A DNA stretch of 64,000 nucleotides, from positions 4,135-68,134 of the forward strand of contig JAKBJL010000003.1 of NCBI GenBank assembly GCA_021836035.1, in the 5' to 3' direction. Source of the stretch: a bacterium. GTDB taxonomy: Bacteria > Patescibacteriota > Microgenomatia > JAMCZE01. Both the position numbers and the translations under genes were made by a program. Of the stretch, positions 1-44,317 are shown piece by piece (the stretch's first letter is position 1; each line of letters begins with the position of its first letter). Under the pieces are notes generated by a model that did no database searches, had not been told where the DNA came from, and was given only the letters and a program-made list of their open reading frames with translations.

Positions 1-2074
1 CTGGTAATTCCCAAACAAGGGAATTACTGGCTTTATTCCAAGTTACCTCACAATCTGTCCAGGGCTTTCTTAACTCGTAAATTTGATATGCCTGGGTTGT
101 CCCGTTAGTCACATACAAGGACAACTGGGCTCCGACCACTATCGAACCGGCAGGCACGGCACTGATGTCAAACTTAAAAAGGGATGACCGGTCCTTGCCG
201 CTTCCCGAGGATTCGCTTCCGCTGACTTTAACCGTCTGGCCACCGCAATAATTAGTATCGGGAGTGGTTTCACTAATATCGTTATCATTGGCCCCGTAAT
301 TGCTATCCGGAAAGACAGAGGTCCTAAAACTAATGACGGTTGCTCCCGGAGAAGAAGTGGTTGCTGAAACGGCCGGCGTTGGCGCCGATTCATTTCCGGC
401 AGCGTCAAAAGCGGAAATCGTATATGAATAAGCGGTATTTGGGGTTAGATTGGAGTCAAGATAAGAACTGACATTGCCGACAGAGGTTAGAAAAGTTCCG
501 TTACGGTAGATTTTATAGCCGGAGGCGCCGGTGGAACTGGCGTTATCATATGAAGTTCCCCAACGAAGTTCAAATTGATCGGCTTTTTCTAAAACCGCGT
601 CAAACGCCCGAGGGACCGAGGGCGGAATCGTATCTGACCCGTAATTGTCGGGCGGTTCTAAATAAACCGGAGCGCCTGGCCTTTTTAAAACGAAGGCGCC
701 GAATTCTATCGGCGTGTGCTTGGCCGGATAAGCGAGATCCCCAATCGGTTGAGCAACGGCTGTTGATGTCATGGGAATAGCGATATTTCCTCCCTGGTAA
801 GTGCCGGAGGCAATCGCCGGTCCTAAGTAATTCTGAGCGTCTTTAACCTCATAACTATCCCCGGCGTTTAAGACGCTGGAAACATCAACCTCGACCGAGC
901 TGCTGTTTGTCCAATTGTAAACGGTAATATTCGCCCGGCCCTTTTCGTATCTATTAGGCCGGACAAAAATACTGTTGGAAGTTGGACGGGAAGAATAATA
1001 TGTATTATTAGGATAGGTTGATGCTAAAGAACCAAGATTGCCGTAAAAAGTATTGCCAGTCATGGAAATATCTGAACAGTTAACAAAGGTAATTAAAGTT
1101 GAACCACCGGCAAAATAGTTACCGGAGCCGATCCGGGGATGTAGACAACCGCTATTGTAACCCAGGTTAACACCGGTGCCGCCGCCGGAACCTGAATAAT
1201 AAGTATAGTTATCTTTCAAGATAGGCCACTCGGCTAAATCCGGCTGGTAACCACCGATCAAGATGTTCGTTTTACGCGATCCGCCGATTTCGCCATTGGA
1301 AAAAGAAGTGTTACCCTGAACGTTAATATAGTTAATGTAACTGCCTTCAGCATAACCATGAATTCCATATCCGGTATCATTAAACATGATATTGTCAGTG
1401 GCATATTTGGTGCTATTGGCGTTTTGGATATAAATCGCATGGCCTCTTTCACCATTCGGGGCGGTGACACCGTTATAATAAATAATATTTCCGTAAGCTT
1501 CCGCGTAATCACCCCCGTTGGCCATAAAAAAACCAAGTCCGCCATCATGAACAACGAGGTTTATAGCTTTGTTGTTGTGTCCGGGAGCTCCCAAGACGAT
1601 ATCAGTTGCTCGTTTAAATTCGCAGGGCGAATAAGAACAAACCCGATGCGGATCGGAGCTCATAACTTCAAACCCCCGATAGATGGTATAATTGCCGCGG
1701 ATATCGAGAAAAGCTTCTACTCCAGAAGGTAAAACGTCTACTGAATTCCTATTCAAAACTGCCCATTCACCGGGGTAGGATTGGACTTTAATATAAGCGT
1801 TGGCATTGCCGGTTAAAGTCGATCGGAAATAGCCAGTTTGGTTATAAGTTCCGCCCCGCAAATTTATAGTATCACCCGGTAAAATTTTTCCCGCAGCACC
1901 AGATAGAGCCGTTTGTAAATCCCAGGGGTTGCTTATGGAACCGTCACCCGTAGAGAAACCCGTTGGGGAAACAAAATAATCAGTAGCAAAGACTGGTTTT
2001 GACAGGGAAAAACAGAAAATAAAAACCAGCAATGAAACAATATAGCAATAGAACAATGTTTTTTTATTTTCCAT
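1..2074 (-). CDS. Secreted right-handed beta-helix (pectate-lyase-like) / FN3 / DNRLRE-like surface protein. Partial: the C-terminus runs off the window start. Tandem paralog of 2064..3902.
   Basis: The ATG at 2072-2074 (reverse complement) opens a frame that, read by eye, appears to stay open to position 1. It is absent from the ORF track because it has no in-window stop. The N-terminal signal peptide is MENKKTLFYCYIVSLLVFIF...ATDYFVSP. Long stretches align with the 2064..3902 protein: YPGEWAVLNR, IYRGFEV, HNNKAINLVVHD, TGNTFYGNLGSLASTYPNNTYYSSRPTSNSIFVRPNRYEKGRANITVYNW, GYKIYRNG...AGNESAP. The start overlaps the stop of the upstream paralog. Confidence 0.6.
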   Translation of the reverse strand, partial: MENKKTLFYCYIVSLLVFIFCFSLSKPVFATDYFVSPTGFSTGDGSISNPWDLQTALSGAAGKILPGDTINLRGGTYNQTGYFRSTLTGNANAYIKVQSYPGEWAVLNRNSVDVLPSGVEAFLDIRGNYTIYRGFEVMSSDPHRVCSYSPCEFKRATDIVLGAPGHNNKAINLVVHDGGLGFFMANGGDYAEAYGNIIYYNGVTAPNGERGHAIYIQNANSTKYATDNIMFNDTGYGIHGYAEGSYINYINVQGNTSFSNGEIGGSRKTNILIGGYQPDLAEWPILKDNYTYYSGSGGGTGVNLGYNSGCLHPRIGSGNYFAGGSTLITFVNCSDISMTGNTFYGNLGSLASTYPNNTYYSSRPTSNSIFVRPNRYEKGRANITVYNWTNSSSVEVDVSSVLNAGDSYEVKDAQNYLGPAIASGTYQGGNIAIPMTSTAVAQPIGDLAYPAKHTPIEFGAFVLKRPGAPVYLEPPDNYGSDTIPPSVPRAFDAVLEKADQFELRWGTSYDNASSTGASGYKIYRNGTFLTSVGNVSSYLDSNLTPNTAYSYTISAFDAAGNESAPTPAVSATTSSPGATVISFRTSVFPDSNYGANDNDISETTPDTNYCGGQTVKVSGSESSGSGKDRSSLFKFDISAVPAGSIVVGAQLSLYVTNGTTQAYQIYELRKPWTDCEVTWNKASNSLVWELP

Positions 2075-3902
2075 AATTAGCAATCACTTTTGTTAAATCA
2101 AAGATAGTGTACGGATTGTTAAAAGAATTTACTACTGTAAGCATATCATTAATATCAACTTTGCCGTCCAGATTATAGTCTCCCGGAATTCCTCCGGTTG
2201 TCACTGTGCTGGGGGCTGATTGGGCTGATTCGTTTCCGGCATCATCGGTGGCCGAAACCGTATAAATATAAGAAGTTTGGGGGAGGATACTCAAGTCTGA
2301 ATAGGAGCAGTTATTATTGGTCGTACAGATTTGCCCAAGAGTTTTTAAAGCCGCTCCATTACGGTAGATTTTATAACCGGTTGGACCGTTAGAACCGGTA
2401 TTATCATAAGAGCCGATCCAGGAAAGATTAACCAGATTGGAATTTGCCAATCCCGCTTTAAACGACCTGGGAACCGACGGAGGTATAGTATCCGGTCCGT
2501 AATCGTCGGGTGGTTCTAGGTATATCGGTGTGCCCGTTCGTTTTAAGACGAACGCGCCGAATTCCGAAGAAGTATGGGTGACCGAAAGGGTTGGGACTGT
2601 TGGTTGGGCAACAGCCGTCCCCGTCATGGGAATGGTAATCGATCCGCCCCGATAAGTTCCCGAGGCAATCGCCGGGCCCAAATAATCTTGAACATCTTTT
2701 ACTTCGTAACTGTCGCCGATTTGTAAAATATTGGAGACATCGACATCAACACTTGAAACATTGGCCCAATTAAAAACAGTAATATTAGCTCTGCCCTGTT
2801 CATATTTGTTGGGCCGAACAAAAATACTGTTGGTGGTTGGCCGGGCGGAATAATAGGTGTTGTTGGGATAGGTACTTTGTAGGGAACTAACGGAACCATA
2901 AAATGTATTGCCGGTGACGGTAATATCACTGCAATTAACAAAAGTAATTAAGGAACTGCCGCGGGCGATATAGTTACCCGGCCCGACTTGCGGATGATGG
3001 CAACCCGTACTGTAACCAAGATTTATTCCCGTACCGGAAGACCCGGAATAATAAAGATAATTATCTTTTATGATTGGCCATTCCGCTAAGTCCGGCTGAT
3101 TGCCGCCAATTAAAATATTGGCTTTATTTGAGCCGCCGAGACTGCCGCTTTTAAAAATAGTATTGCCGGCGAGATTAAAGTAATTAAGGTAGCTCCCCGA
3201 AGCATAAGCATGAAAACCGTAGGCATAGGAATTGAGAATCATGTTATTGGTGATATATTTGGTGCTGTTGGCATTTTGGGCATAAATACCGTGCTGAAGG
3301 TTGGAAGCGCCGTTGTTATAAAAGATGTTCCCGTAGACCTCGGAATCGTTATGGCCATTAGCAAAAAACATGCCGATGCCGTTATCATGAATGACTAAAT
3401 TAACAATTTTATTATTATGGCCGGGCGCGCCGGGAACCACTCCTGTTACCCGATTAAAACTGCAATCGGGTGCGGCGCAACCAAGGAGAGGACTGGAGTT
3501 CGTTACTTCAAAACCCCGGTAAATAGTATAACTGCCCTCAATTTCGAAAAAACCCTCGGTATTGGCTGGCATCATTGCCGCCGAGGCCCGGTCAACTATC
3601 GCCCATTCACCCGGGTAAGATTGAACTTTAATATAATTGCTTGCGGAACCGGCAAGTGAGGAATGATAATAAATGCTCTGATTGTAAGTGCCGCCACGTA
3701 AGTTAAGCGTGTCTCCCGGGATAATTTTCCCGTTACCTCCGTGAAGAGCCGTTTGCAAGTCCCAGGGATTATTTATTGAGCCATCGCCAAGTGAACTTCC
3801 CCCGGGTGAAACAAAATAGTCAGCGGCAAATACCACCGTAGGAAGCAGCAGGTAGAGGGTGGTAAAAAGCGGAACAATAAAATAACTAAGTAATATTTTC
3901 AT
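2064..3902 (-). CDS. Secreted right-handed beta-helix (pectate-lyase-fold) protein with an FN3 module and a C-terminal dockerin-like calcium-loop tag.
   Basis: 612-aa ORF with an N-terminal signal peptide (MKILLSYFIVPLFTTLYLLLPTVVFA). Repetitive G/N-rich beta-helix-like core (NLVIHDNGIGMFFANGHNDSEVYGNIFYNNG...). FN3-like segment (GYKIYRNG...YIYTVSATDDAGNES). The C-terminus PGDYNLDGKVDINDMLTVVNSFNNPYTIFDLTKVIANYGK matches a dockerin Ca-binding repeat (D-x-N-x-D-G-x-V-D/N-x-x-D plus helix). Confidence 0.75.
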   Translation of the reverse strand: MKILLSYFIVPLFTTLYLLLPTVVFAADYFVSPGGSSLGDGSINNPWDLQTALHGGNGKIIPGDTLNLRGGTYNQSIYYHSSLAGSASNYIKVQSYPGEWAIVDRASAAMMPANTEGFFEIEGSYTIYRGFEVTNSSPLLGCAAPDCSFNRVTGVVPGAPGHNNKIVNLVIHDNGIGMFFANGHNDSEVYGNIFYNNGASNLQHGIYAQNANSTKYITNNMILNSYAYGFHAYASGSYLNYFNLAGNTIFKSGSLGGSNKANILIGGNQPDLAEWPIIKDNYLYYSGSSGTGINLGYSTGCHHPQVGPGNYIARGSSLITFVNCSDITVTGNTFYGSVSSLQSTYPNNTYYSARPTTNSIFVRPNKYEQGRANITVFNWANVSSVDVDVSNILQIGDSYEVKDVQDYLGPAIASGTYRGGSITIPMTGTAVAQPTVPTLSVTHTSSEFGAFVLKRTGTPIYLEPPDDYGPDTIPPSVPRSFKAGLANSNLVNLSWIGSYDNTGSNGPTGYKIYRNGAALKTLGQICTTNNNCSYSDLSILPQTSYIYTVSATDDAGNESAQSAPSTVTTGGIPGDYNLDGKVDINDMLTVVNSFNNPYTIFDLTKVIANYGK

Positions 3903-4429: not shown

Positions 4430-4523
4430 TTTTTGCGCGGCTTCACCTTTTCCCCGCCCTGTTTCCCAACTTTACCATATTTTGGTTGCCAACGCCTCTA
4501 TGAACTATTATAATTAGGAAGCA

Positions 4524-6059
4524 ATGTCCCAGGGAAACCTAAAGGTTCTTTTCGTGGCCGCTGAGGTAGCGCCTTTTTCCATGATGGGCGGTTTGGGGCA
4601 GGTAGGTTACTTTCTGCCGCGGGGACTACTCAAAAAGGGTGTTGATGTCCGCATTTTTACTCCCCGCTACGCGAAGATTGATCCGGTAAAATTTCCCCTG
4701 AAGATGGTTGTAGAAGGACTGCGGGTGCCGACCGGAGAACCGCCGGGTACGAATAATCCCACGGAGCTTATCTGCAATATCAAATCTTTCGGTGAGACGA
4801 AAAAGGGCGAACCGACAGTCTATTTTCTGGAAAACCAGGAATATTATGAACAACGGGCAAACGTTTACGGCTACAGCGACGACCATATCCGCTTCGGTCT
4901 CTTATCACGTGGGGCTTTGGAGTTTATCAAAAATGACGGTTTTGTTCCGGATCTGGTTCATTGTAATGATTGGCACACCGGTTATCTGATAAACTTTTTA
5001 GAACAGGAAAGCAAAGAAAGCCGGATTAATAAAATTGCCCGTCTGATGTCCGTCCATAACCTTTACCAGGGCAATTTCGATTTTGCCCATTGTTCGGAGA
5101 TGGATTACGACGACGGTAAAAGTCCCCTGGCGTCTTTTTATACGGAACAGTTTTATAAGCAAAACGCCCTGAAGCGGGGAGTGATTTACGCGGATGCGGT
5201 CAATACCGTTTCCGAAACTTATGCCCGGGAGATCATGACTGACGAGTACGGTAAGGGAATGCACAATTTATTCCGGGAGCTCCGCGGGAAACTATTCGGC
5301 GTCCTTAACGGCTTGGATTATCGCGAATTCAATCCCCAGACCGACAAAATTATTAAAGCTAACTATAGCCTTAACTCCTTGGATAAGCGGGCGGAAAACA
5401 AAAAAGATTTACAGCGACAGTTTGGTCTGGACGAAGACCCGGACGTACCAATTTTATCTTTCTGGGGTCGCATTGATACGCAGAAAGGCGTTACTTTGAT
5501 GCAGGAGACGATGCATTTTCTACTTTCGGAATTTGATGCCCAACTGGTGATGGTCGGCCCGATTGACGACCAATTCAGGGATTATTTTTTACAACTGGAA
5601 AAGGATTTCCCCGGTCGGGTGGGAACGCATTTTCTGTATAACCCCATACTGCCGCGGAAGGTGTCTGCCGGAGGGGACATCGTGCTTTTACCTTCCAAAT
5701 ATGAGCCGGGAGGAATTGTGGCTTTGGAAGCGATGCGCTACGGTTGCGTGCCGGTAGTCCGGGCCACCGGCGGTTTGGCTGATTCGGTGACTGATTATAA
5801 TCCGGCTAAAAATATCGGCACCGGTTTTACATTTAAGAAATTTACCCGGGAAAGTTTTATTGTGGCCGTTGTCCGGGCTCTTGAAACTTACAAAGATAAA
5901 GATGCGTGGAATAAGATTGTCCGGCGGGCGATGCAACAGGATTTTTCCTGGGGGAAAGTCGCGGAGAAGTATCTGGATTTGTACCAGCGGGCGGTGGAGT
6001 TTCGTAAAGAAGCGCTTCTTCCCAATCCGCCCACAGCGTTCAGGCAAATAACAACGTAA
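4524..6059 (+). CDS. glgA: Glycogen/starch synthase (GT5 family).
   Basis: N-terminal KVLFVAAEVAPFSMMGGLGQV motif. C-terminal GGLADSVTDY. 511 aa. Confidence 0.85.
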   Translation: MSQGNLKVLFVAAEVAPFSMMGGLGQVGYFLPRGLLKKGVDVRIFTPRYAKIDPVKFPLKMVVEGLRVPTGEPPGTNNPTELICNIKSFGETKKGEPTVYFLENQEYYEQRANVYGYSDDHIRFGLLSRGALEFIKNDGFVPDLVHCNDWHTGYLINFLEQESKESRINKIARLMSVHNLYQGNFDFAHCSEMDYDDGKSPLASFYTEQFYKQNALKRGVIYADAVNTVSETYAREIMTDEYGKGMHNLFRELRGKLFGVLNGLDYREFNPQTDKIIKANYSLNSLDKRAENKKDLQRQFGLDEDPDVPILSFWGRIDTQKGVTLMQETMHFLLSEFDAQLVMVGPIDDQFRDYFLQLEKDFPGRVGTHFLYNPILPRKVSAGGDIVLLPSKYEPGGIVALEAMRYGCVPVVRATGGLADSVTDYNPAKNIGTGFTFKKFTRESFIVAVVRALETYKDKDAWNKIVRRAMQQDFSWGKVAEKYLDLYQRAVEFRKEALLPNPPTAFRQITT

Positions 6060-6141
6060 GGGGCCAGGAATTAGGGGCCAGGAATTAGAGAATTTTTCGT
6101 TATGCTAACTCCTGAACTCCAGCTGCTAGCCCCTTCGATTT

Positions 6142-7623
6142 ATGGTTTGGGCTAATTTTTTGCATATTTTCCAACCGGCGCACCAGTTGCCGGATATTTT
6201 GGAAAGGATTGTCAATGAATCCTACCGGCCTTTGATGAAAGGCTTCTTAGCCCGTCCGAAGGCGAAGCTGATTTTAAATATTAACGCGGGGCTGGCGGAG
6301 CTTCTGATTGCTCAGGGATACGGAGATATTATCGAAGCGGTTACGACCCTTGCCGAGCGGGGGCAGCTGGAATTTTTAGAAAGCGCGGCTTATCATGCTT
6401 TTCTCCCCATGCTTCCCGAGGCGGAAATCCGTCAACAGATTGCTTTAAATAAAAAAATTAATACCGGAATTTTCGGTAAAGTTTACCAACCAACGGGCTT
6501 TTTTGCTCCGGAAATGGCTTACAGCGAAAAGGTAGGGAAAATTGCCGACGAGCTGGGTTACCGTTATTATCTTCTTGATGAAATCGCCTTCAACGGTCGG
6601 GTGGAACAGGCAGATCTCGCCAAAATTTTTACTTTGCAGGGAACCAGCCTGAAAATTCTTTTCCGCAACCGCCGGATATCGAACCTGATCATGGGCGCGG
6701 TGGTTAGAAACGGGGAAACTTTTATCGAAGCGCTCGGGGAAGCGGGTAAGGAAGATTTTAAAGGTTATATTCTCACCGCGATGGACGGGGAAACTTTCGG
6801 CCATCACCGGCCGGGATTGGACAAGTTACTTTTTGAAATTTATGAGTCCAAAAAAATTCAGCCGGTGCTTTCGCAGGATTTATTAAATATGTATCCGGCG
6901 GGAGGCGAAATTGCTCCCATTGCTTCCACCTGGGCCTGCAGCGCTGATGACATCGCCCGCGGCGCCCAGTTTAATCTTTGGAACGATCCGGAAAATGAAA
7001 TTCACCGCCTGCAGTGGGAATTGGCCGATTTGGCTTTGGAAGCGGGAAGTTTTCTCACCGGAGAGCTCAAAAGGAAACACCAGGAATTGATCCAGGATAA
7101 GCTGGACCGGGCTTTGGATTCCGGCCAGTTTTGGTGGGCTTCAGCCAATCCCTGGTGGAGCCTTGAGGAAATTGAAAGGGGAGCTTGGAATTTATTGGAG
7201 GTAGTGGAGGAAGTCGACCGCCTGGGGGGACGGCAAATGGAAAAGGTAACCCGCGCCCGCCAGGTTTACCAGAAAATTATTTCCATGGCTTTCGATTACC
7301 AGCGCACTGGGCGGATGCGCAAAATTATTGCCGCCCAAAAAAGCTTTTTAAAAATTCCCGTCAAGGAGCGCGATCCGGCGGAATATAAAGCGGCGGTGGA
7401 AATTCTCCGGCGCGAGGAAAAGAATGCCGTCCAACGCGGCGAATACGAACAGGCGATCAAATGGCGCGATGCTGCTTATAAATTAGAAAACGGTTTGGAT
7501 ATTTATGATACAGTCAGTATTATTGACCAACTTCGGGCGCAAAACCGCCACCAGGATTTTGAACAGATTTTGGAAAAATACCGCGAGGAATTCCGCAATC
7601 TTCAATCCGGCCAACCGGAATAA
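6142..7623 (+). CDS. Glycoside hydrolase family 57 protein (alpha-glucan branching / amylase-like).
   Basis: GH57 conserved regions: HQLP near the N-terminus, FFAPEMAY (region III, catalytic Glu), TAMDGETFGHH (region IV, catalytic Asp). Sits between the two glgA genes. Confidence 0.6.
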   Translation: MVWANFLHIFQPAHQLPDILERIVNESYRPLMKGFLARPKAKLILNINAGLAELLIAQGYGDIIEAVTTLAERGQLEFLESAAYHAFLPMLPEAEIRQQIALNKKINTGIFGKVYQPTGFFAPEMAYSEKVGKIADELGYRYYLLDEIAFNGRVEQADLAKIFTLQGTSLKILFRNRRISNLIMGAVVRNGETFIEALGEAGKEDFKGYILTAMDGETFGHHRPGLDKLLFEIYESKKIQPVLSQDLLNMYPAGGEIAPIASTWACSADDIARGAQFNLWNDPENEIHRLQWELADLALEAGSFLTGELKRKHQELIQDKLDRALDSGQFWWASANPWWSLEEIERGAWNLLEVVEEVDRLGGRQMEKVTRARQVYQKIISMAFDYQRTGRMRKIIAAQKSFLKIPVKERDPAEYKAAVEILRREEKNAVQRGEYEQAIKWRDAAYKLENGLDIYDTVSIIDQLRAQNRHQDFEQILEKYREEFRNLQSGQPE

Positions 7624-7750
7624 ATACAGCTTCAGAGGGCGCTGTCTCCTCAAGGTCAAGCCAATAATAAATTATCGAATGATATCTTTACAGGGAAACA
7701 ATATGGCTTATAATAGCTTCATAAGTTTCTGTCTCAGGAAGTGATAGAAA

Positions 7751-8107
7751 ATGAGTAATCGATATGAAATCAGGTTTCATCAGTGTGATCCGATTGGGGG
7801 AAAGATATTTGCAAAACCCGAAGAGGTGATGGAAATTTCCCGTTTAAATTTTACCGAAAGTATTGAAGCGGTGGAGAAAGCTATGGGAGGATATGCGTGT
7901 GAAGTAAGAGTGGTGGAAATTAATAACTCCGGAGGAGAAGACGTTTTTATCAAATATAACCGGCACAGCGGGGTTCTGGAAATATTGGGAATTGAAATTC
8001 CTCCGGAGACGGACCTTAAAAGGAGAATGAAAGAAACCGGCAAAACAGGGCTTGCCTTATTGGCAGAGTTGGCACGGGAAAGAAATTCCGCTAAGATGGA
8101 AGTGTGA
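7751..8107 (+). CDS. Hypothetical protein within the glycogen cluster.
   Basis: 118-aa ORF whose stop overlaps the start of the downstream glgA paralog. No recognisable motif. Confidence 0.4.
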   Translation: MSNRYEIRFHQCDPIGGKIFAKPEEVMEISRLNFTESIEAVEKAMGGYACEVRVVEINNSGGEDVFIKYNRHSGVLEILGIEIPPETDLKRRMKETGKTGLALLAELARERNSAKMEV

Positions 8108-9759
8108 AGGTTTTGTATTGCGCTTCGGAGTGCGCGCCTTTTTTTAAACTCGGGGGTTTGGGCGATGTCGCCGGCAGTTTGCCTCAGGCGCTGACTAGGT
8201 TAGGAATAGAAGCAACGGTTGCGATACCTTTCTTCAAACAAATTAGCGAGGGCATAGGGGATGGGGGCCCGCTTCGTTCTGGGGGGAGCGAGGCGCTCCG
8301 GGGATTAGAGAAAACGGAGGAATATGTAGTGCACTTCGGGAAACCGAAAAGACCGGAGAAAGTAACAGTCTACCGTGGTAAACTGCCGGACGGGGAAACC
8401 CCGATTTTATTTTTTGCTAATCCCACCTACCTGACACAATATGTTTCACCCGCGGATTTTGGTGACCAGGATAAGATTGTAGAGCGGTTTATTTTTTTCT
8501 CCGAAGCAATTGCGAAATATTTAAGTCTTGGGGTCCTGCCAAGCGACCATCCCCAAAATGCTAGCTTCGCCAAACGGCGTATCTTTTCGGTTCATTCTTC
8601 CTTGAATTTTATTTCTTATATCTTATCCGGACAAGTAAGACTTCGCAACGCTTTTGGGGTACCCGCAGGTCGTCAACCCTACTTTGATGTTATTCATCTC
8701 AACGACTGGCATGTAAGCATGGTAGCATCAATATTAAATACCAAATTTCAAGATATAAGATACAAACCAAAGACTCTTCTGACTATTCATAATTTATCTT
8801 ATAAAGGCCGGGTGGTAAGCGATATTTTGGCCGATTTGCCACCGGAGATTTATGATGCGGCTTCAGTCGAGTGGGATATCGGGGACGGAATTTTAAACTG
8901 TCTCAAACAGGGAATAGTGGCGGCTGATTATGTCAATACTGTCTCTCCGACCTACGCACGGGAAATACAAACCCCGGAATATGGTGAAGGAATGGAAGAG
9001 CTGCTGCATGGCAGAGAGGGGAGATTGGTGGGGATTTTGAACGGTATTGATGGAAAAGTGTGGGACCCGCGCAAAGACGGGATGATAGCAAAAAGTTTAA
9101 AGACAATGGTAGCAAGTATTGAGTCTCGGGAAAAGGAAATAGGGGGATGGAAAAAAGAAAACAAGAAAGCGCTGCGGCAGGCGGTAGGATTGCCGCAGGA
9201 AGAGGATGTCCCTCTATTCGGAATGGTGAGCCGGATGACGGAACAGAAAGGTATAGATATTTTAAATAAATCAATAAATTCTGTCCTGGGGCGGGGTGCG
9301 GGCCTAAAAAACTTTCAATTGGTCGTTTTGGGGACGGGGGAGAAAGAATATGAAGCCGGGTTGCAAGAGTTGGCCGATAAGTATCCGGACCAAGTGGCGG
9401 TGAAGATCGGATTTGACGAAAAACTAGCCCATCAAATTTATGCCGGGAGCGATTTTTTCCTGGTGCCGTCGAAGTTTGAACCCTGTGGGCTGACGCAAAT
9501 TATCGCCATGCGCTATGGCTCAGTTCCCCTCGTTCGTGATACCGGAGGATTACACGATACGGTTAAAGACGGGGGAACGGGGATCGTATTTAAGGAATAT
9601 AGCTCGGAAGCCCTGACGGAGGCGATGCAAAGAGCAATCGGGATATACGGGGAGCAGGATACAGTACGCAATCTGCGAAATAGGGGGATGCAAGAGGATT
9701 TTTCCTGGGAGCAAAGCGCCCGGGAATATGTTAATCTTTATAAAAGAATATTATCCTAA
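8104..9759 (+). CDS. Second GT5 glycogen-synthase-like protein carrying a long internal insertion.
   Basis: N-terminal KVLYCASECAPFFKLGGLGDV and C-terminal TGGLHDTV, with RYGSVPLVRDTGG. About 120 extra residues sit between the N-terminal motif and the DWH region. Confidence 0.75.
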   Translation: MKVLYCASECAPFFKLGGLGDVAGSLPQALTRLGIEATVAIPFFKQISEGIGDGGPLRSGGSEALRGLEKTEEYVVHFGKPKRPEKVTVYRGKLPDGETPILFFANPTYLTQYVSPADFGDQDKIVERFIFFSEAIAKYLSLGVLPSDHPQNASFAKRRIFSVHSSLNFISYILSGQVRLRNAFGVPAGRQPYFDVIHLNDWHVSMVASILNTKFQDIRYKPKTLLTIHNLSYKGRVVSDILADLPPEIYDAASVEWDIGDGILNCLKQGIVAADYVNTVSPTYAREIQTPEYGEGMEELLHGREGRLVGILNGIDGKVWDPRKDGMIAKSLKTMVASIESREKEIGGWKKENKKALRQAVGLPQEEDVPLFGMVSRMTEQKGIDILNKSINSVLGRGAGLKNFQLVVLGTGEKEYEAGLQELADKYPDQVAVKIGFDEKLAHQIYAGSDFFLVPSKFEPCGLTQIIAMRYGSVPLVRDTGGLHDTVKDGGTGIVFKEYSSEALTEAMQRAIGIYGEQDTVRNLRNRGMQEDFSWEQSAREYVNLYKRILS

Positions 9760-9925
9760 TTTTGGGGTCCCGGCGCGAACAGCCCCAAAAACAGCATTTG
9801 CTATGGCGACGGCATTATTATCCAGCGTTTTTTTTCCTCTTTTCGTGTCCGATTTTATAAAAAAGAGGGGTTTATTCCATGTTTTACCGGGCGCCCGTTC
9901 GCGTGGCCCTCTTTAAAATTAAAAT

Positions 9926-10810
9926 ATGGCTAAATTTGTTCCCGATATTAAGACTAACCGCTGGGTAATTATTGCCCCCGCCCGGAGTACGCGGCCGCAC
10001 AACAACGGCAACAGTAAAGAAATTGACGGCAAGTGTGTTTTTTGCCCGGGTAACGAATATTTAAACCCTCTAGAACTCTACCGGGTAAGCGCCCCGCCGG
10101 GAGCGGGGCAAATGCTTACGCCTGACTGGAAAATTCGGGTAATTGCTAACAAGTATCCCATTACTGATATGCATGAAGTGATCATCCATTCTCCGGATCA
10201 TAATGCCGATGTTGACAATCTGCCCCTGGAACATGTGGAAATGCTTATTCATACCTACCGCCAGCGCTATAACTTCCATACGGAAAACGGTCATGGGACG
10301 GTCCTTATTTTCAACAACCATGACGTCCAGGCGGGCGCCTCGATTAAACATGCCCATTCGCAATTGGTGGTTGTTCCTAAACAAATTAATCTGGATACCG
10401 TGATCCGTGAACCGGTAAACAATTTGGTGGCGGAAACCGATTACTTCTATGTCTATTGCCCGGATTTTTCCCAATGGCCGTATGAAGTCTGGATCGCCCC
10501 GCGGGAGGCGGGACATGCTTTCGGAGAGATTAATGACATTCAGGTTAAAAACTTAGCGTCTTTGCTGCAAAAAACCCTTATCATTATCAATAAGAAATTT
10601 TTACCGCCCGACGGGTCAGGGAAAAAGCCCGAAGACAAAGATATTCCTTACAACTATTATATTTACCACGGACCGGACTGGTACTTGAGGGTTATACCGC
10701 GCCTTATTCACCGCGCCGGGTTTGAGCTGGGAACCGGTCTTTCCGTGAATGTTATTGATCCCACCATGGCCGCGGCCGAGTATCGGGAAGAGATGGACAA
10801 ACTTCAGTAA
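9926..10810 (+). CDS. GalT-family HIT nucleotidyltransferase (galactose-1-phosphate uridylyltransferase-like / ADP-glucose phosphorylase-like).
   Basis: Zn-binding CVFCPGNE motif. HIT-like H-x-H-x-Q motif KHAHSQLVVVP. 294 aa. Confidence 0.7.
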   Translation: MAKFVPDIKTNRWVIIAPARSTRPHNNGNSKEIDGKCVFCPGNEYLNPLELYRVSAPPGAGQMLTPDWKIRVIANKYPITDMHEVIIHSPDHNADVDNLPLEHVEMLIHTYRQRYNFHTENGHGTVLIFNNHDVQAGASIKHAHSQLVVVPKQINLDTVIREPVNNLVAETDYFYVYCPDFSQWPYEVWIAPREAGHAFGEINDIQVKNLASLLQKTLIIINKKFLPPDGSGKKPEDKDIPYNYYIYHGPDWYLRVIPRLIHRAGFELGTGLSVNVIDPTMAAAEYREEMDKLQ

Positions 10811-10858: not shown

Positions 10859-11098
10859 TTATTTACCCATTCCCAGAAGCCAAAGGACTGCTTCTTTTTT
10901 GTACCTCCGGTCTCCTCTTGAATTGATACGGATGGCGGGCAGTTTGCCTCTTTTACCCCAGCGCTTAATAGTGAGGACAGAAACGCGCAGGAGTTGGGCG
11001 ACTTCTTTGACCGTGAGCAGATCCGGAAGGTTATCGATTGATATTTTTTGATCAACCACAGACATAGAAATATGATCTACTATTATTGTATATAACAA
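10859..11098 (-). CDS. Excisionase/AlpA-family helix-turn-helix DNA-binding protein.
   Basis: LTVKEVAQLLRVSVLTIKRWGKRGKLPAIRINSRGDRRYKKEAV matches the excisionase-family HTH pattern. 79 aa. Confidence 0.5.
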   Translation of the reverse strand: MLYTIIVDHISMSVVDQKISIDNLPDLLTVKEVAQLLRVSVLTIKRWGKRGKLPAIRINSRGDRRYKKEAVLWLLGMGK

Positions 11099-33700: not shown

Positions 33701-34444
33701 GGGGACGGTCCTTTAATTTGTTGACAATACAATTAAGACATATCACAATTTGTTAAGTATGCCGCGCGGTCCTCGTCTTGCATTAAAAAATGCATTCTAC
33801 CGTGTTTTTAACCGCGGAATTAACAAACAGGATATTTTTATCCAGCCGGTGGATTACGTTTTTTCCTAAAAAGATTAATAAAATTGAAGGAGAAATATGA
33901 CTTTTCATTGTATGCCGTATGCCTCCTGCCGAATCATTTCCATCTTTCTCTCCAAACGCGCAAGGATCCTATCTTGCAGATAATGTCCTCGTTGGCTACC
34001 GGATTTTCAATGTATTATAACCGCGCTTATTCTCACTTTGGTCCAGTTTTTCAAAATAGATATAAAAGTATTCTCATTCAAAATGAAGCATATTTTATCC
34101 AGCTCTCGCAATATATTTATTTAAATCCTGTGTTAGCGGGATTGGTATCCGACCCGGTAAATTATTCCTACAGTACTTTTGGCGAAGCTATCGGATTACG
34201 CCCTTTGCATCTATTAGACACGGCTATTGTCCGCTTGATCGGCGAAACAAAACATTCGAAAGAGGAGTATAGAAAATTTGTTTATGAAGGCATGAATGCC
34301 GATTTTTCCGGATACGGAAAAGTTATTTATGGAAGAGGAGGCAGTACTCGGGAATAATTTGTTTGCTATGGGGGTCAGGAGAAAATACGTCTCGAGAAGT
34401 CATTAATATAATTTGCCCCGACAATTAATTCTAGGACCGTCCCC
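33701..34444. mobile_element. IS200/IS605-family (Y1 transposase) element bounded by a 12-bp inverted repeat, GGGGACGGTCCT / AGGACCGTCCCC.
   Basis: Inverted copies of ggggacggtcc sit at 33701-33711 and 34434-34444. The only gene between them is the IS200-like tnpA. Total length is about 744 bp. Confidence 0.6.
33759..34357 (+). pseudogene. tnpA: IS200/IS605 TnpA (Y1 HUH transposase) with a 1-nt frameshift in a T6 run (33859-33864).
   Basis: Frame 1 reads MPRGPRLALKNAFYRVFNRGINKQDIFIQPVDYVF and then stops. One added T gives ...DYVFFLKRLIKLKEKYDFSLYAVCLLPNHFHL... continuing into ORF 33884..34357 (HxH motif NHFHL; catalytic-Tyr region FQNRYKSILIQNE). Confidence 0.6.
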
Positions 34445-43475: not shown

Positions 43476-44057
43476 TTATAATTTAGTAACCTGCAGGAAG
43501 TCCAGCTCTACCGGGGTTTCGCGGCCGAAAATAGAAACAAGCACCTTCAGTTTGCCGTGGGCTTCGTCTATAGAGTCGACTGTTCCTAAAAAATCGGCAA
43601 AGGGACCGTCAATAATTTTGATGGCTTCACCGGCGGAAAAGCTGCTCTTAAATTTCGGTGCCGCCAGCTGCGAAAATTTCATGATCGCTTCCACTTCTGA
43701 TTCCGGCAGGGGGGTGGGTTTGTTTCCCGTTCCGATAAAAGCGGTTACCCCCGAAGTAGTCCGTACGGCCAGCCATGAGTCGTCAGTTAAAATCATTCTG
43801 ACGAGAATGTAGCCCGGGAAGATCTTTTCTTTGACTTCTTCTTTTTTGCCGCGTTTGACAGTCATGGTGTCCTTGGTCGGAACCATAACTTCGAATATGT
43901 AATCCATCAAACCCATCGCCTCCGCGCGTTGTTTAAGAGCCGCGGCCACTTTGTTTTCGTGGCCAGAATAAGTATGAACCACATACCACTTAGCTAAATC
44001 CGAAGGCTTGGATTGCGGATTTGCTTCCGTATTTACTTGTGTAGTTTGTTCATCCAT
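43476..44057 (-). CDS. nusG: Transcription termination/antitermination factor NusG.
   Basis: From the internal Met: MDEQTT...KWYVVHTYSGHENKV...PGYILVRM... with KOW region GEAIKIIDGPFADFLGTVDSID. The track's 5' extension overlaps secE. Confidence 0.85.
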   Translation of the reverse strand: MDEQTTQVNTEANPQSKPSDLAKWYVVHTYSGHENKVAAALKQRAEAMGLMDYIFEVMVPTKDTMTVKRGKKEEVKEKIFPGYILVRMILTDDSWLAVRTTSGVTAFIGTGNKPTPLPESEVEAIMKFSQLAAPKFKSSFSAGEAIKIIDGPFADFLGTVDSIDEAHGKLKVLVSIFGRETPVELDFLQVTKL

Positions 44058-44086
44058 ACAGTAATTAGAAATTAGATGTTTATTAG

Positions 44087-44317
44087 CTATCTGCTTAATA
44101 TGGCTGCCATTGCTTTGGCAAAAATAAAATCTAATCCTCCTAGGTAAACCCCGACTAAAACCGATACCCCAACAACTACAGCGGTTAATTTTAACACTTC
44201 CGGCCGGCTGGGCCAAGCAACCTTACGCAGTTCCGACCGCACTTCCTTGAGAAAAGTTACCGGATTAGTCCCGAAATTCGGACGGGTAATATTAAAAGAA
44301 TCGCTTATTTGGACCAT
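44087..44317 (-). CDS. secE: Preprotein translocase subunit SecE.
   Basis: 76 aa with a single C-terminal TM. KEVRSELRKVAWPSRPEV motif. Sits directly upstream of nusG. Confidence 0.7.
   Translation of the reverse strand: MVQISDSFNITRPNFGTNPVTFLKEVRSELRKVAWPSRPEVLKLTAVVVGVSVLVGVYLGGLDFIFAKAMAAILSR

Follow-up and report, generated by a model that had tools for sequence, protein, structure and literature searches.

A Patescibacterial glycogen operon in which a GalT-like HIT nucleotidyltransferase accompanies a second glycogen synthase

Bacterial glycogen synthesis is taught as following either the GlgC-GlgA-GlgB or the GlgE route. Here we examine a five-gene locus in a 64-kb stretch of DNA from a Microgenomates-like member of the Patescibacteriota (contig JAKBJL010000003.1, positions 4,135 to 68,134; hereafter the window, from whose first letter all coordinates are counted), in which two GT5 glycogen synthases (GlgA1 and GlgA2) are encoded together with a GH57 family protein and a GalT-like HIT nucleotidyltransferase. 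With the classical glgBXCAP cluster of Escherichia coli this locus has in common a GT5 GlgA that possesses all catalytic residues and would elongate alpha-1,4-glucan from nucleoside diphosphate (NDP)-glucose. However, it lacks GlgC, the GH13 enzymes GlgB and GlgX, and GlgP, and it has two GT5 paralogues instead of one, a GH57 protein in the remodelling position, and the HIT enzyme at the NDP-glucose node. A closer counterpart is the WWE3 (RAAC2) glycogen operon listed by Kantor et al. 2013 (mBio, PMC3812714), in which the GalT-like protein was given no role. Among the loci compared here (numbered with the prefix L), the WWE3 locus L095 follows the same order as the window (GlgA1, GH57, GH57-UVR, GlgA2, HIT), where GH57-UVR denotes the GH57 protein with a C-terminal UVR-like motif that the two share. 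The WWE3 operon has an extra amylase-like or short GH57 gene, whereas an orphan open reading frame (ORF) of 118 aa stands in its stead in the window; furthermore, a 47-aa insertion in GlgA2 is private to the window, whereas GlgA2 and the HIT enzyme form one polypeptide in L095. Considering that the operon was listed in 2013 (PMC3812714), the window should be regarded as a further example of an operon type that has been described but not characterised. In the literature we searched (on DUF4931, on ADP-glucose phosphorylase together with glycogen, and on galT, glgA and GH57), the association was untreated apart from the 2013 gene list, and a 2024 Chem Rev review (PMC11046441) on the alpha-glucan enzymes of prokaryotes is, in its accessible part, silent on GalT/HIT enzymes. 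Nor did we find in print, within the same literature, any grouping of the HIT enzyme with ADP-glucose phosphorylase, any mention of its specific coupling to a second GT5 protein (including two gene fusions and a linkage to phosphoglucomutase), or any statement that the GH57 protein cannot be classed as a known branching enzyme.

All five genes are on the plus strand, with the limits and in the order given by the initial annotation, whose description of the region as a glycogen/alpha-glucan locus is supported here. They are glgA1, encoding a GT5 glycogen/starch synthase of 511 aa (4524-6059); the GH57-UVR gene (6142-7623; 493 aa; PF03065 at 105.6 bits versus a cutoff of 21.2); the orphan ORF for a hypothetical protein of 118 aa without a family match (7751-8107); glgA2, which has a GTG start and encodes a second GT5 protein of the canonical KLGGL type (8104-9759; 551 aa); and the gene for a GalT-like class I HIT nucleotidyltransferase of the DUF4931 type (9926-10810; 294 aa; PF16285 and PF01087). 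Both synthases exceed the TIGR02095 cutoff of 328 bits, at 454 bits for GlgA1 and 471 bits for GlgA2. As the initial annotation had also stated, glgC and a GH13 branching enzyme are absent from the window according to Pfam scans of 40 non-overlapping ORFs of at least 150 aa and to BLASTP (E<1e-5) and phmmer searches with reference GlgC, GalU and GlgB of all ORFs of at least 50 aa. No NTP_transferase (GlgC/GalU), GH13 (GlgB/GlgX), GlgP, phosphoglucomutase, GalK or GalE was present in the 64 kb, and no GalK or GalE homologue (E<1e-5) was detected in the window or in about 170 fetched loci. Similarly, neither the window nor about 1.5 Mb of DNA surrounding the Patescibacterial loci yielded a GlgC/GalU homologue; the same search was positive in 5 of 31 non-Patescibacterial loci, which served as a positive control.

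The GalT-like protein and its link to the second synthase

Class I HIT proteins are defined here by an HxHxQ motif, of which the second His is nucleophilic and the first a zinc ligand, plus an N-terminal Cys-x-x-Cys. The GalT-like protein possesses both H142-A-H144-S-Q146 and the zinc motif C37-V-F-C40, and H142, H144 and Q146 as well as R20, R23, N75, S139 and E187 are invariant among its aligned homologues. The initial annotation had proposed to place this protein relative to GalT and ADP-glucose phosphorylase, and it falls with the latter, without galK or galE nearby. By phmmer against the PDB, it matches Arabidopsis At5g18200 (1z84) at 1.8e-25, PaGalT at 1.5e-13 and E. coli GalT at 2.9e-5, and a Foldseek search with its AlphaFold2 model (predicted local distance difference test score, pLDDT, 86.4) likewise placed 2h39/1z84 at the top (about 5e-20; 4.8e-20), with GalTs at 3e-16 and 3e-13. 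At5g18200 is also the nearest solved relative of the L010 homologue (1.6e-48) and of a GT5-fused HIT domain from the metagenome contig L175 (1.3e-75), well ahead of the GalTs. In 91.5% of bootstraps, a neighbour-joining tree (the only method used, with 42 sequences, 200 bootstraps and limited sampling) kept the GalTs of E. coli and Pyrobaculum aerophilum apart from a group made up of At5g18200 and every glycogen-linked protein. The protein fails the equivalog models for Leloir GalT, scoring 44.1 versus 102.1 for TIGR00209 and 58.1 versus 448 for NF008724 (PRK11720). By sequence, fold and tree it is nearer to At5g18200 than to GalTs. We know of no link between At5g18200 (1Z84/2H39) and a glycogen synthase. 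The Arabidopsis protein has the HxHxQ and Cys-x-x-Cys motifs in common with the GalT-like protein (33% identity over 269 aligned columns), and it is named as an ADP-glucose phosphorylase, with citation of McCoy 2006, in PMC6329318. We infer that the GalT-like protein is probably an NDP-glucose:phosphate nucleotidyltransferase of the At5g18200 type.

The GalT-like HIT gene associates specifically with the second synthase, GlgA2. Part of the evidence comes from gene fusions. P0271, a WWE3 protein of 826 aa found by a search with GlgA2, is a GT5::HIT fusion in which residues 1-468 form a GlgA2-type GT5 protein and residues 522-826 a GalT-like domain, with 32% identity along the whole length of the window protein; its locus, L095, encodes GlgA1, a short GH57, GH57-UVR and then the fusion, in the order seen in the window. 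Searching metagenomes with a profile of GalT-like proteins revealed a second, independent fusion, on contig L175, in which a GT5 protein of another type is linked directly to a HIT subtype of about 330 aa. As separate genes, glgA2 and, 3' of it, the GalT-like gene lie 0-105 nt apart in L134 (a full five-gene cluster), L112, L136, L061 and L040. Two-GT5 loci contain the GalT-like gene in 6 cases out of 24, one-GT5 loci in 1 out of 61. Some of these loci had been recovered with HIT or GlgA2 as the query; the unbiased set gives about 3 of 21 two-GT5 loci versus 0 of 58 one-GT5 loci. In the sister group of about 330 aa, 12 of 23 loci of at least 6 kb carry GT5/GH57 genes, with GT5 adjacent or fused in 9.

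Genes of glucose-1-phosphate metabolism also adjoin. In L119, L122 and L129 the gene immediately 3' of the GalT-like one encodes phosphoglucomutase; in L149 and L150 phosphoglucomutase comes after GlgA. A gene of GH94, which is a family of glycoside phosphorylases, adjoins in L010. In two metagenome loci of non-Patescibacterial type, the GalT-like gene is flanked by NTP_transferase::phosphoglucomutase fusion genes (L162, 5624-8227; L168, 9004-11457), whose products of 817-867 aa join PF00483 and LbH to a phosphoglucomutase/phosphomannomutase; in L168 this fusion and a GalT-like gene of the 330-aa type sit among three GH57 genes and a GT5 gene. The fusions, the adjacency to GlgA2 and the linkage to phosphoglucomutase place the HIT enzyme in the neighbourhood of glucose-1-phosphate, NDP-glucose and glucan. 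The connection with NDP-glucose that the initial annotation had suggested is thus supported, a link to the synthase is borne out by immediate adjacency, two independent GT5::HIT fusions and phosphoglucomutase neighbours, and a functional link of the GalT-like gene to glycogen synthase is well supported.

The conserved synthase-GH57 pair and the two synthases

The locus is an alpha-glucan (glycogen) operon typical of Patescibacteria. A scan with a GH57-UVR profile, taking one genome per species, identified 80 Patescibacterial loci. In 67 of these 80 species a GT5 gene lies on the same strand at most 150 nt 5' of GH57-UVR, and 7 others have one within 2.5 kb. As GT5 is directly upstream in 67 of 80, GlgA1 and GH57-UVR form a conserved module. 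Every named homologue of either the GalT-like or the GH57 protein is from the Patescibacteria, among them Microgenomates, Gottesmanbacteria, WWE3 and Paceibacteria. Several GTDB records with the GlgA and GH57-UVR pair, such as L014 (OZ246416.1), L027 and L090, are titled Gammaproteobacteria or Methylomirabilota, and these titles are probably mislabels or come from mis-binned metagenome-assembled genomes.

Several other genes are variable additions to this core, as seen in a set of 85 GH57-UVR loci (L008-L090, L095, L134 and the window). A second GT5 gene is present in 24 (about 30% of species) and GlgP in 28, and other additions include an APH-like kinase, a short GH57, GH15, PHP and GH94. The second GT5 and GlgP never occur together near GH57-UVR (both in 0 loci, second GT5 only in 24, GlgP only in 28, neither in 33), an exclusivity with a Fisher p of 1.5e-5, uncorrected for phylogeny. 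The closest relative of the window, L008, encodes GlgA1, GH57-UVR, GlgP on the minus strand and then the GalT-like gene, and its GlgP fills the slot occupied by the 118-aa ORF and GlgA2 in the window.

GH57-UVR belongs to a family of more than 1500 homologues of about 495 aa, of which the named ones are all Patescibacterial, and it is built of a (beta/alpha)7 catalytic core, a helical domain and the C-terminal UVR-like motif. This motif (residues ~404-452; 7354-7500 in the window), where model confidence is low, is a helical motif of the UvrB/UvrC type that gave a weak McsA-like match in the window protein and PF02151 in many homologues; a UVR motif is an unusual appendage on a glycoside hydrolase. 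Membership of GH57 is clear from PF03065 above its cutoff and from the conserved Glu nucleophile and Asp acid/base of conserved sequence regions III and IV: across 63 GH57-UVR sequences E124 and D215 do not vary, and they align with E123 and D214 of the Thermococcus litoralis 4-alpha-glucanotransferase (1K1W), the catalytic residues of that enzyme. GH57-UVR is thus predicted to be a catalytically intact member of its own GH57 subfamily.

The initial annotation suggested that this protein may serve for branching, but it fails every sequence test for the branching subfamily. GH57-UVR scored 33 bits versus 920 for the branching-enzyme equivalog NF041566 and 24 versus 1000 for NF041133, and GH57 branching enzymes align with it over only about 70 aa. 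In PMC9291813, GH57 branching has been tied to a DUF1957 domain, a flexible loop and a beta5-beta6 element. The C-terminal DUF1957 domain was not detected in GH57-UVR by Pfam, which beyond PF03065 gave only a weak Polysacc_deac_1 match (E<=0.01), and the flexible loop (often Tyr-tipped) and beta5-beta6 strands, which lie between conserved sequence regions III and IV in branching enzymes, are judged absent from the residue spacing. E124 and D215 are 91 residues apart, versus 191 for E191 and D382 of the T. hugenholtzii enzyme, the one branching-enzyme homologue for which PMC9291813 gives the catalytic pair, and so short a stretch could not accommodate these two elements. The best PDB sequence match was instead the T. 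litoralis 4-alpha-glucanotransferase (3.5e-7, residues 7-229). The AlphaFold2 model of GH57-UVR (pLDDT 88.6) matched every solved GH57 structure by Foldseek (E 1e-16 to 1e-13), with template modelling (TM) scores of 0.54-0.60 and 15-18% identity that were about equal for all characterised activities. Compared with the branching enzymes (TT1467 of Thermus thermophilus, TK1436 of Thermococcus kodakarensis and that of Pyrococcus horikoshii), GH57-UVR has the (beta/alpha)7 core and the Glu/Asp pair in common (Foldseek E about 1e-15, TM 0.59-0.60, identity 15-18%), but carries the UVR motif instead of their DUF1957 C-terminal domain. The T. litoralis enzyme (659 aa) is its best match by both sequence and Foldseek, at an identity of only 17-18%, but has a large C-terminal beta-sandwich where GH57-UVR has a helical C-terminal half. 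Considering its tight pairing with a synthase, GH57-UVR might be a biosynthetic transglycosylase, and branching is a possible activity that the membership criteria do not support.

Turning to the synthases, E9, G17, G18, H161, N162, R300, K305 and E377 (E. coli numbering) are invariant in the GT5 alignment, GlgA1 and GlgA2 included. GlgA1 is the GT5 type that precedes GH57-UVR across Patescibacteria. Its sequence S-M-M-G-G-L replaces K-T-G-G-L at residues 20-21 (Lys15-Thr16 to Met-Met in E. coli numbering), and among 64 GlgA1-type proteins of Patescibacteria 15 have S, T, N, Q, M or F instead of Lys15 but keep the other catalytic residues. E. coli GlgA mutated at Lys15 is still active, and the loss does not therefore exclude GlgA1 from GT5 GlgA, and the replacement may alter the contact with the donor phosphate. 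Loss of Lys15 was also considered as a marker of two-GT5 loci and was rejected, the difference (8 of 15 versus 14 of 49) not being convincing. GlgA2 is 38% identical to E. coli GlgA and 39% identical to the GT5 half of P0271. The insertion of about 120 aa ascribed to it by the initial annotation shrank, in an alignment with E. coli GlgA and seven close homologues, to one of about 47 aa (residues ~142-188; 8527-8670), just before the DVIHLNDWH strand, and three small ones of about 15, 10 and 5 aa, making a total of 74 aa more than E. coli GlgA. The 47-aa insertion is specific to this lineage, being absent from E. coli GlgA, P0271 and the seven closest homologues, and it is private to this genome. 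The accompanying idea of GlgA2 as a regulatory or primer-forming paralogue found no support: the catalytic residues are intact, the protein belongs to a widespread second-GT5 type, and the insertion is private.

Small features and surrounding DNA

A candidate sigma-70-like promoter (TTGCCA-17-TATAAT, 11/12 consensus positions) lies at 4486-4514 on the plus strand, 10 nt 5' of glgA1, and another (TTTACA-16-TATAAT, 11/12 positions) at 7687-7714 on the same strand, 5' of the 118-aa ORF and glgA2; both are consensus matches and do not imply function. A terminator between glgA2 and the GalT-like gene was rejected, since the 166-nt gap contains no hairpin terminator and folds no better than shuffled sequence (z = +1.1).

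The 118-aa ORF overlaps the GTG start of glgA2 by 4 nt and is only a putative gene. Neither Pfam nor NCBIfam gave a match for it, its sole real match among 1.84 billion representative proteins is itself, and its GC content at third codon positions is 0.41 versus 0.48-0.54 in the neighbouring genes. Its slot is the position of an APH-like kinase in other Patescibacteria; decay from such a kinase, GlgP or PHP was considered and rejected, tblastn of 7600-8120 having returned noise only. The APH-family gene, possibly a sugar kinase, lies directly 3' of GH57-UVR in L010 (11501-12361), L009 (11506-12582) and about 10 other loci, and it precedes the second GT5 wherever a second GT5 exists.

Downstream of the GalT-like gene, a small MerR/HTH_17 protein (PF12728, PF13411) is encoded on the minus strand at 10859-11065, a context gene whose listing does not imply a role in the pathway. 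In genomes of the Microgenomates type, no neighbour of the GalT-like gene is more conserved than proteins of this kind (66-71 aa), which are encoded in either orientation and occur beside it in L001, L003, L006, L007, L008 and 20 of 49 metagenome loci; such a protein could, for example, regulate the HIT gene. The ribosomal-protein operon that follows is split, with L7/L12 (12233-12625) and L10 (12747-13259) on the minus strand and L1 (42047-42925) and NusG (43476-44216), also on the minus strand, about 29 kb away; in relatives, L10 and L1 are direct neighbours or have 1-3 genes between them. The block between L10 and L1 encodes very large surface proteins of cohesin, fn3, Big_13 and F5/8-type-C types, two Mur-ligase/Ddl proteins and a fragment of an IS200-like Y1 transposase (33884-34357). 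Directly 5' of the glycogen cluster, the opposite strand encodes a pair of large, pectate-lyase-like beta-helix proteins resembling Pel9A (minus strand, 2064-3902 and further upstream), and the C-terminus of the Pel9A-like protein of 612 aa weakly resembles the exoglucanase CbhB.

A possible nucleotide cycle and its alternatives

The GalT-like enzyme probably acts at the glucose-1-phosphate/NDP-glucose step of a putative glycogen route. GlgA1 and GlgA2 would elongate alpha-1,4 chains from NDP-glucose, and GH57-UVR would remodel them by transglycosylation, branching being the most economical guess for it because there is no other branching enzyme nearby. Enzymes of the GalT family work by a ping-pong mechanism via a histidine-nucleoside monophosphate (NMP) intermediate. 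The HIT enzyme could accordingly convert glucose-1-phosphate and NDP to NDP-glucose and inorganic phosphate, reversibly, through a covalent His144-NMP, with glucose-1-phosphate supplied by phosphoglucomutase or sugar phosphorylases. GlgA2 would use NDP-glucose and release NDP, which the HIT enzyme would recharge with glucose-1-phosphate. In sum, glucose-1-phosphate and glucan(n) would yield glucan(n+1) and inorganic phosphate, with the nucleotide acting catalytically and no ATP spent, and a GT5::HIT fusion would make sense for such a cycle. The 2006 work of McCoy is reported to place the equilibrium of At5g18200 on the side of phosphorolysis (Keq of about 5-40), and NDP-glucose synthesis would therefore have to be pulled by the exergonic synthase step. 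The explanation we consider best, and somewhat probable, is a Patescibacterial glycogen operon in which the HIT enzyme recharges NDP-glucose in coupling with GlgA2. A bolder version, in which GlgA2 and the HIT enzyme form an ATP-independent, reversible glycogen machine that replaces GlgC and possibly GlgP, with ADP or another NDP as carrier and GH57-UVR as a new kind of branching or remodelling enzyme, is conceivable but fairly unlikely.

Several observations weigh against the recharging of NDP-glucose in coupling with GlgA2, the reported equilibrium being one of them. The window protein is trimmed relative to At5g18200 (294 versus 351 aa), as about 25 aa after NKYP and about 20 aa after HxHxQ, including a second Cys pair, are missing; GH57-UVR does not qualify as a GH57 branching enzyme; and each GT5::HIT fusion is known from a single assembly. 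A true GlgC (326 bits) is clustered with the GalT-like gene in the non-Patescibacterial locus L160, and other sugar-1-phosphate nucleotidyltransferases adjoin it in L147, L162, L166 and L168, implying that the HIT enzyme is not simply a substitute for GlgC. In addition, the orthologous GalT-like gene of L001, L003, L006 and L007 stands in the series GalT-like, small MerR/HTH_17, L12, L10, L1, L11, NusG and SecE, with glycogen genes absent within 10 kb; GT5 is directly upstream in only 3 of 49 orthologous metagenome loci; and only 3 of 79 unbiased GH57-UVR loci contain the GalT-like gene. As this gene is, in this lineage, anchored beside L12/L10 even without glycogen genes, adjacency alone would be weak evidence. 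It might then be a coincidental neighbour, a housekeeping nucleotide-sugar enzyme (e.g., for cell-envelope precursors) anchored at the MerR/L12/L10 genes in Microgenomates, with glycogen genes filling a variable upstream junction, and this would suit both the synteny in the four loci without glycogen genes and the changing upstream neighbour (a PKD giant protein, CTP_transf/DUF359, 23S_rRNA_IVP or WecG, the last lying 5' of the GalT-like gene in L007, L119, L122 and L129), as well as the rarity of GT5 in that position. However, coincidence is difficult to reconcile with two independent GT5::HIT fusions, with the short gaps after GlgA2 in five other lineages, with the enrichment in two-GT5 loci or with a sister family that lies beside GT5/GH57 in about half of its loci of at least 6 kb, and the chance of immediate adjacency would by a rough estimate be well below 1% if about 1000 genes of a genome include one or two for GT5, which makes this explanation quite improbable. 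We give even less credence to a Leloir galactose module modelled on the galA-galT-galK cluster of Pyrococcus, in which GH57 would be an alpha-galactosidase and the GalT-like protein a true galactose-1-phosphate uridylyltransferase. The homologue P0126 is annotated as 'Alpha-galactosidase' by its source, the JGI labels several homologues UDPglucose--hexose-1-phosphate uridylyltransferase, and PF01087 is above its cutoff. Nevertheless, GalK and GalE are absent from the window and the roughly 170 loci, the GalT equivalogs fail, the tree and the PDB rankings place the protein with At5g18200, and the GH57 gene is nearly always paired with a GT5 glycogen synthase; the Leloir reading was rejected as hardly credible.

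A more serious rival, which we nonetheless hold to be unlikely, concerns the direction of the reaction: the HIT enzyme may act as an ADP-glucose phosphorylase that drains or buffers NDP-glucose, or it may form, with GlgA2 running in reverse, a two-enzyme substitute for GlgP. A phosphorolytic role would agree with the equilibrium attributed to At5g18200 and with the nucleotidyltransferases in or beside five non-Patescibacterial clusters, in which the supply of NDP-glucose is already covered. The strict exclusivity of the second GT5 and GlgP among the 85 GH57-UVR loci (uncorrected for phylogeny) and the replacement of the 118-aa ORF and GlgA2 by GlgP in L008 point the same way, and the only characterised close relative of the protein is a phosphorylase according to PMC6329318. 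On the other hand, the fusion of a domain that destroys NDP-glucose to a consumer of NDP-glucose is hard to rationalise if the role is purely degradative, reversal of the synthase is strongly uphill by our own estimate from standard free energies, and the exclusivity may reflect two clades rather than function. The remaining alternative touches the GH57 step only and is compatible with recharging by the HIT enzyme: GH57-UVR may be a 4-alpha-glucanotransferase or an amylase, so that a linear or disproportionated alpha-1,4-glucan is made or recycled, or the branching enzyme may be encoded elsewhere. This is a real possibility, if somewhat short of an even chance, as the T. litoralis enzyme is the top PDB match and has the same 91-aa catalytic spacing, DUF1957 is undetected, both branching equivalogs score far too low, and the branching loop and beta5-beta6 element described in PMC9291813 do not fit. 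However, the TM scores to branching enzymes (0.59-0.60) are as high as those to any other GH57 protein, and near-universal pairing with a synthase, together with the absence of GH13 from the neighbourhoods of about 1.5 Mb, fits a biosynthetic partner.

The value of these observations lies in the comparative pattern, the locus alone being an ordinary member of an operon type listed in 2013. In this pattern, a GalT-like HIT protein of the ADP-glucose phosphorylase clade is a recurrent partner of GT5 synthase, phosphoglucomutase and GH57, which gives an assayable hypothesis for the physiological role of ADP-glucose phosphorylases. An uncharacterised GH57 subfamily with more than 1500 members is likewise flagged as an obligatory partner of the Patescibacterial synthase. 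We regard the interest of the finding as moderate; it would be higher if ATP-independent nucleotide cycling is true, in which case the net reaction of GlgA2 and the HIT enzyme would equal that of glycogen phosphorylase. In any case, the pattern bears on how the energy-poor, minimal-genome Patescibacteria charge glucose for storage.

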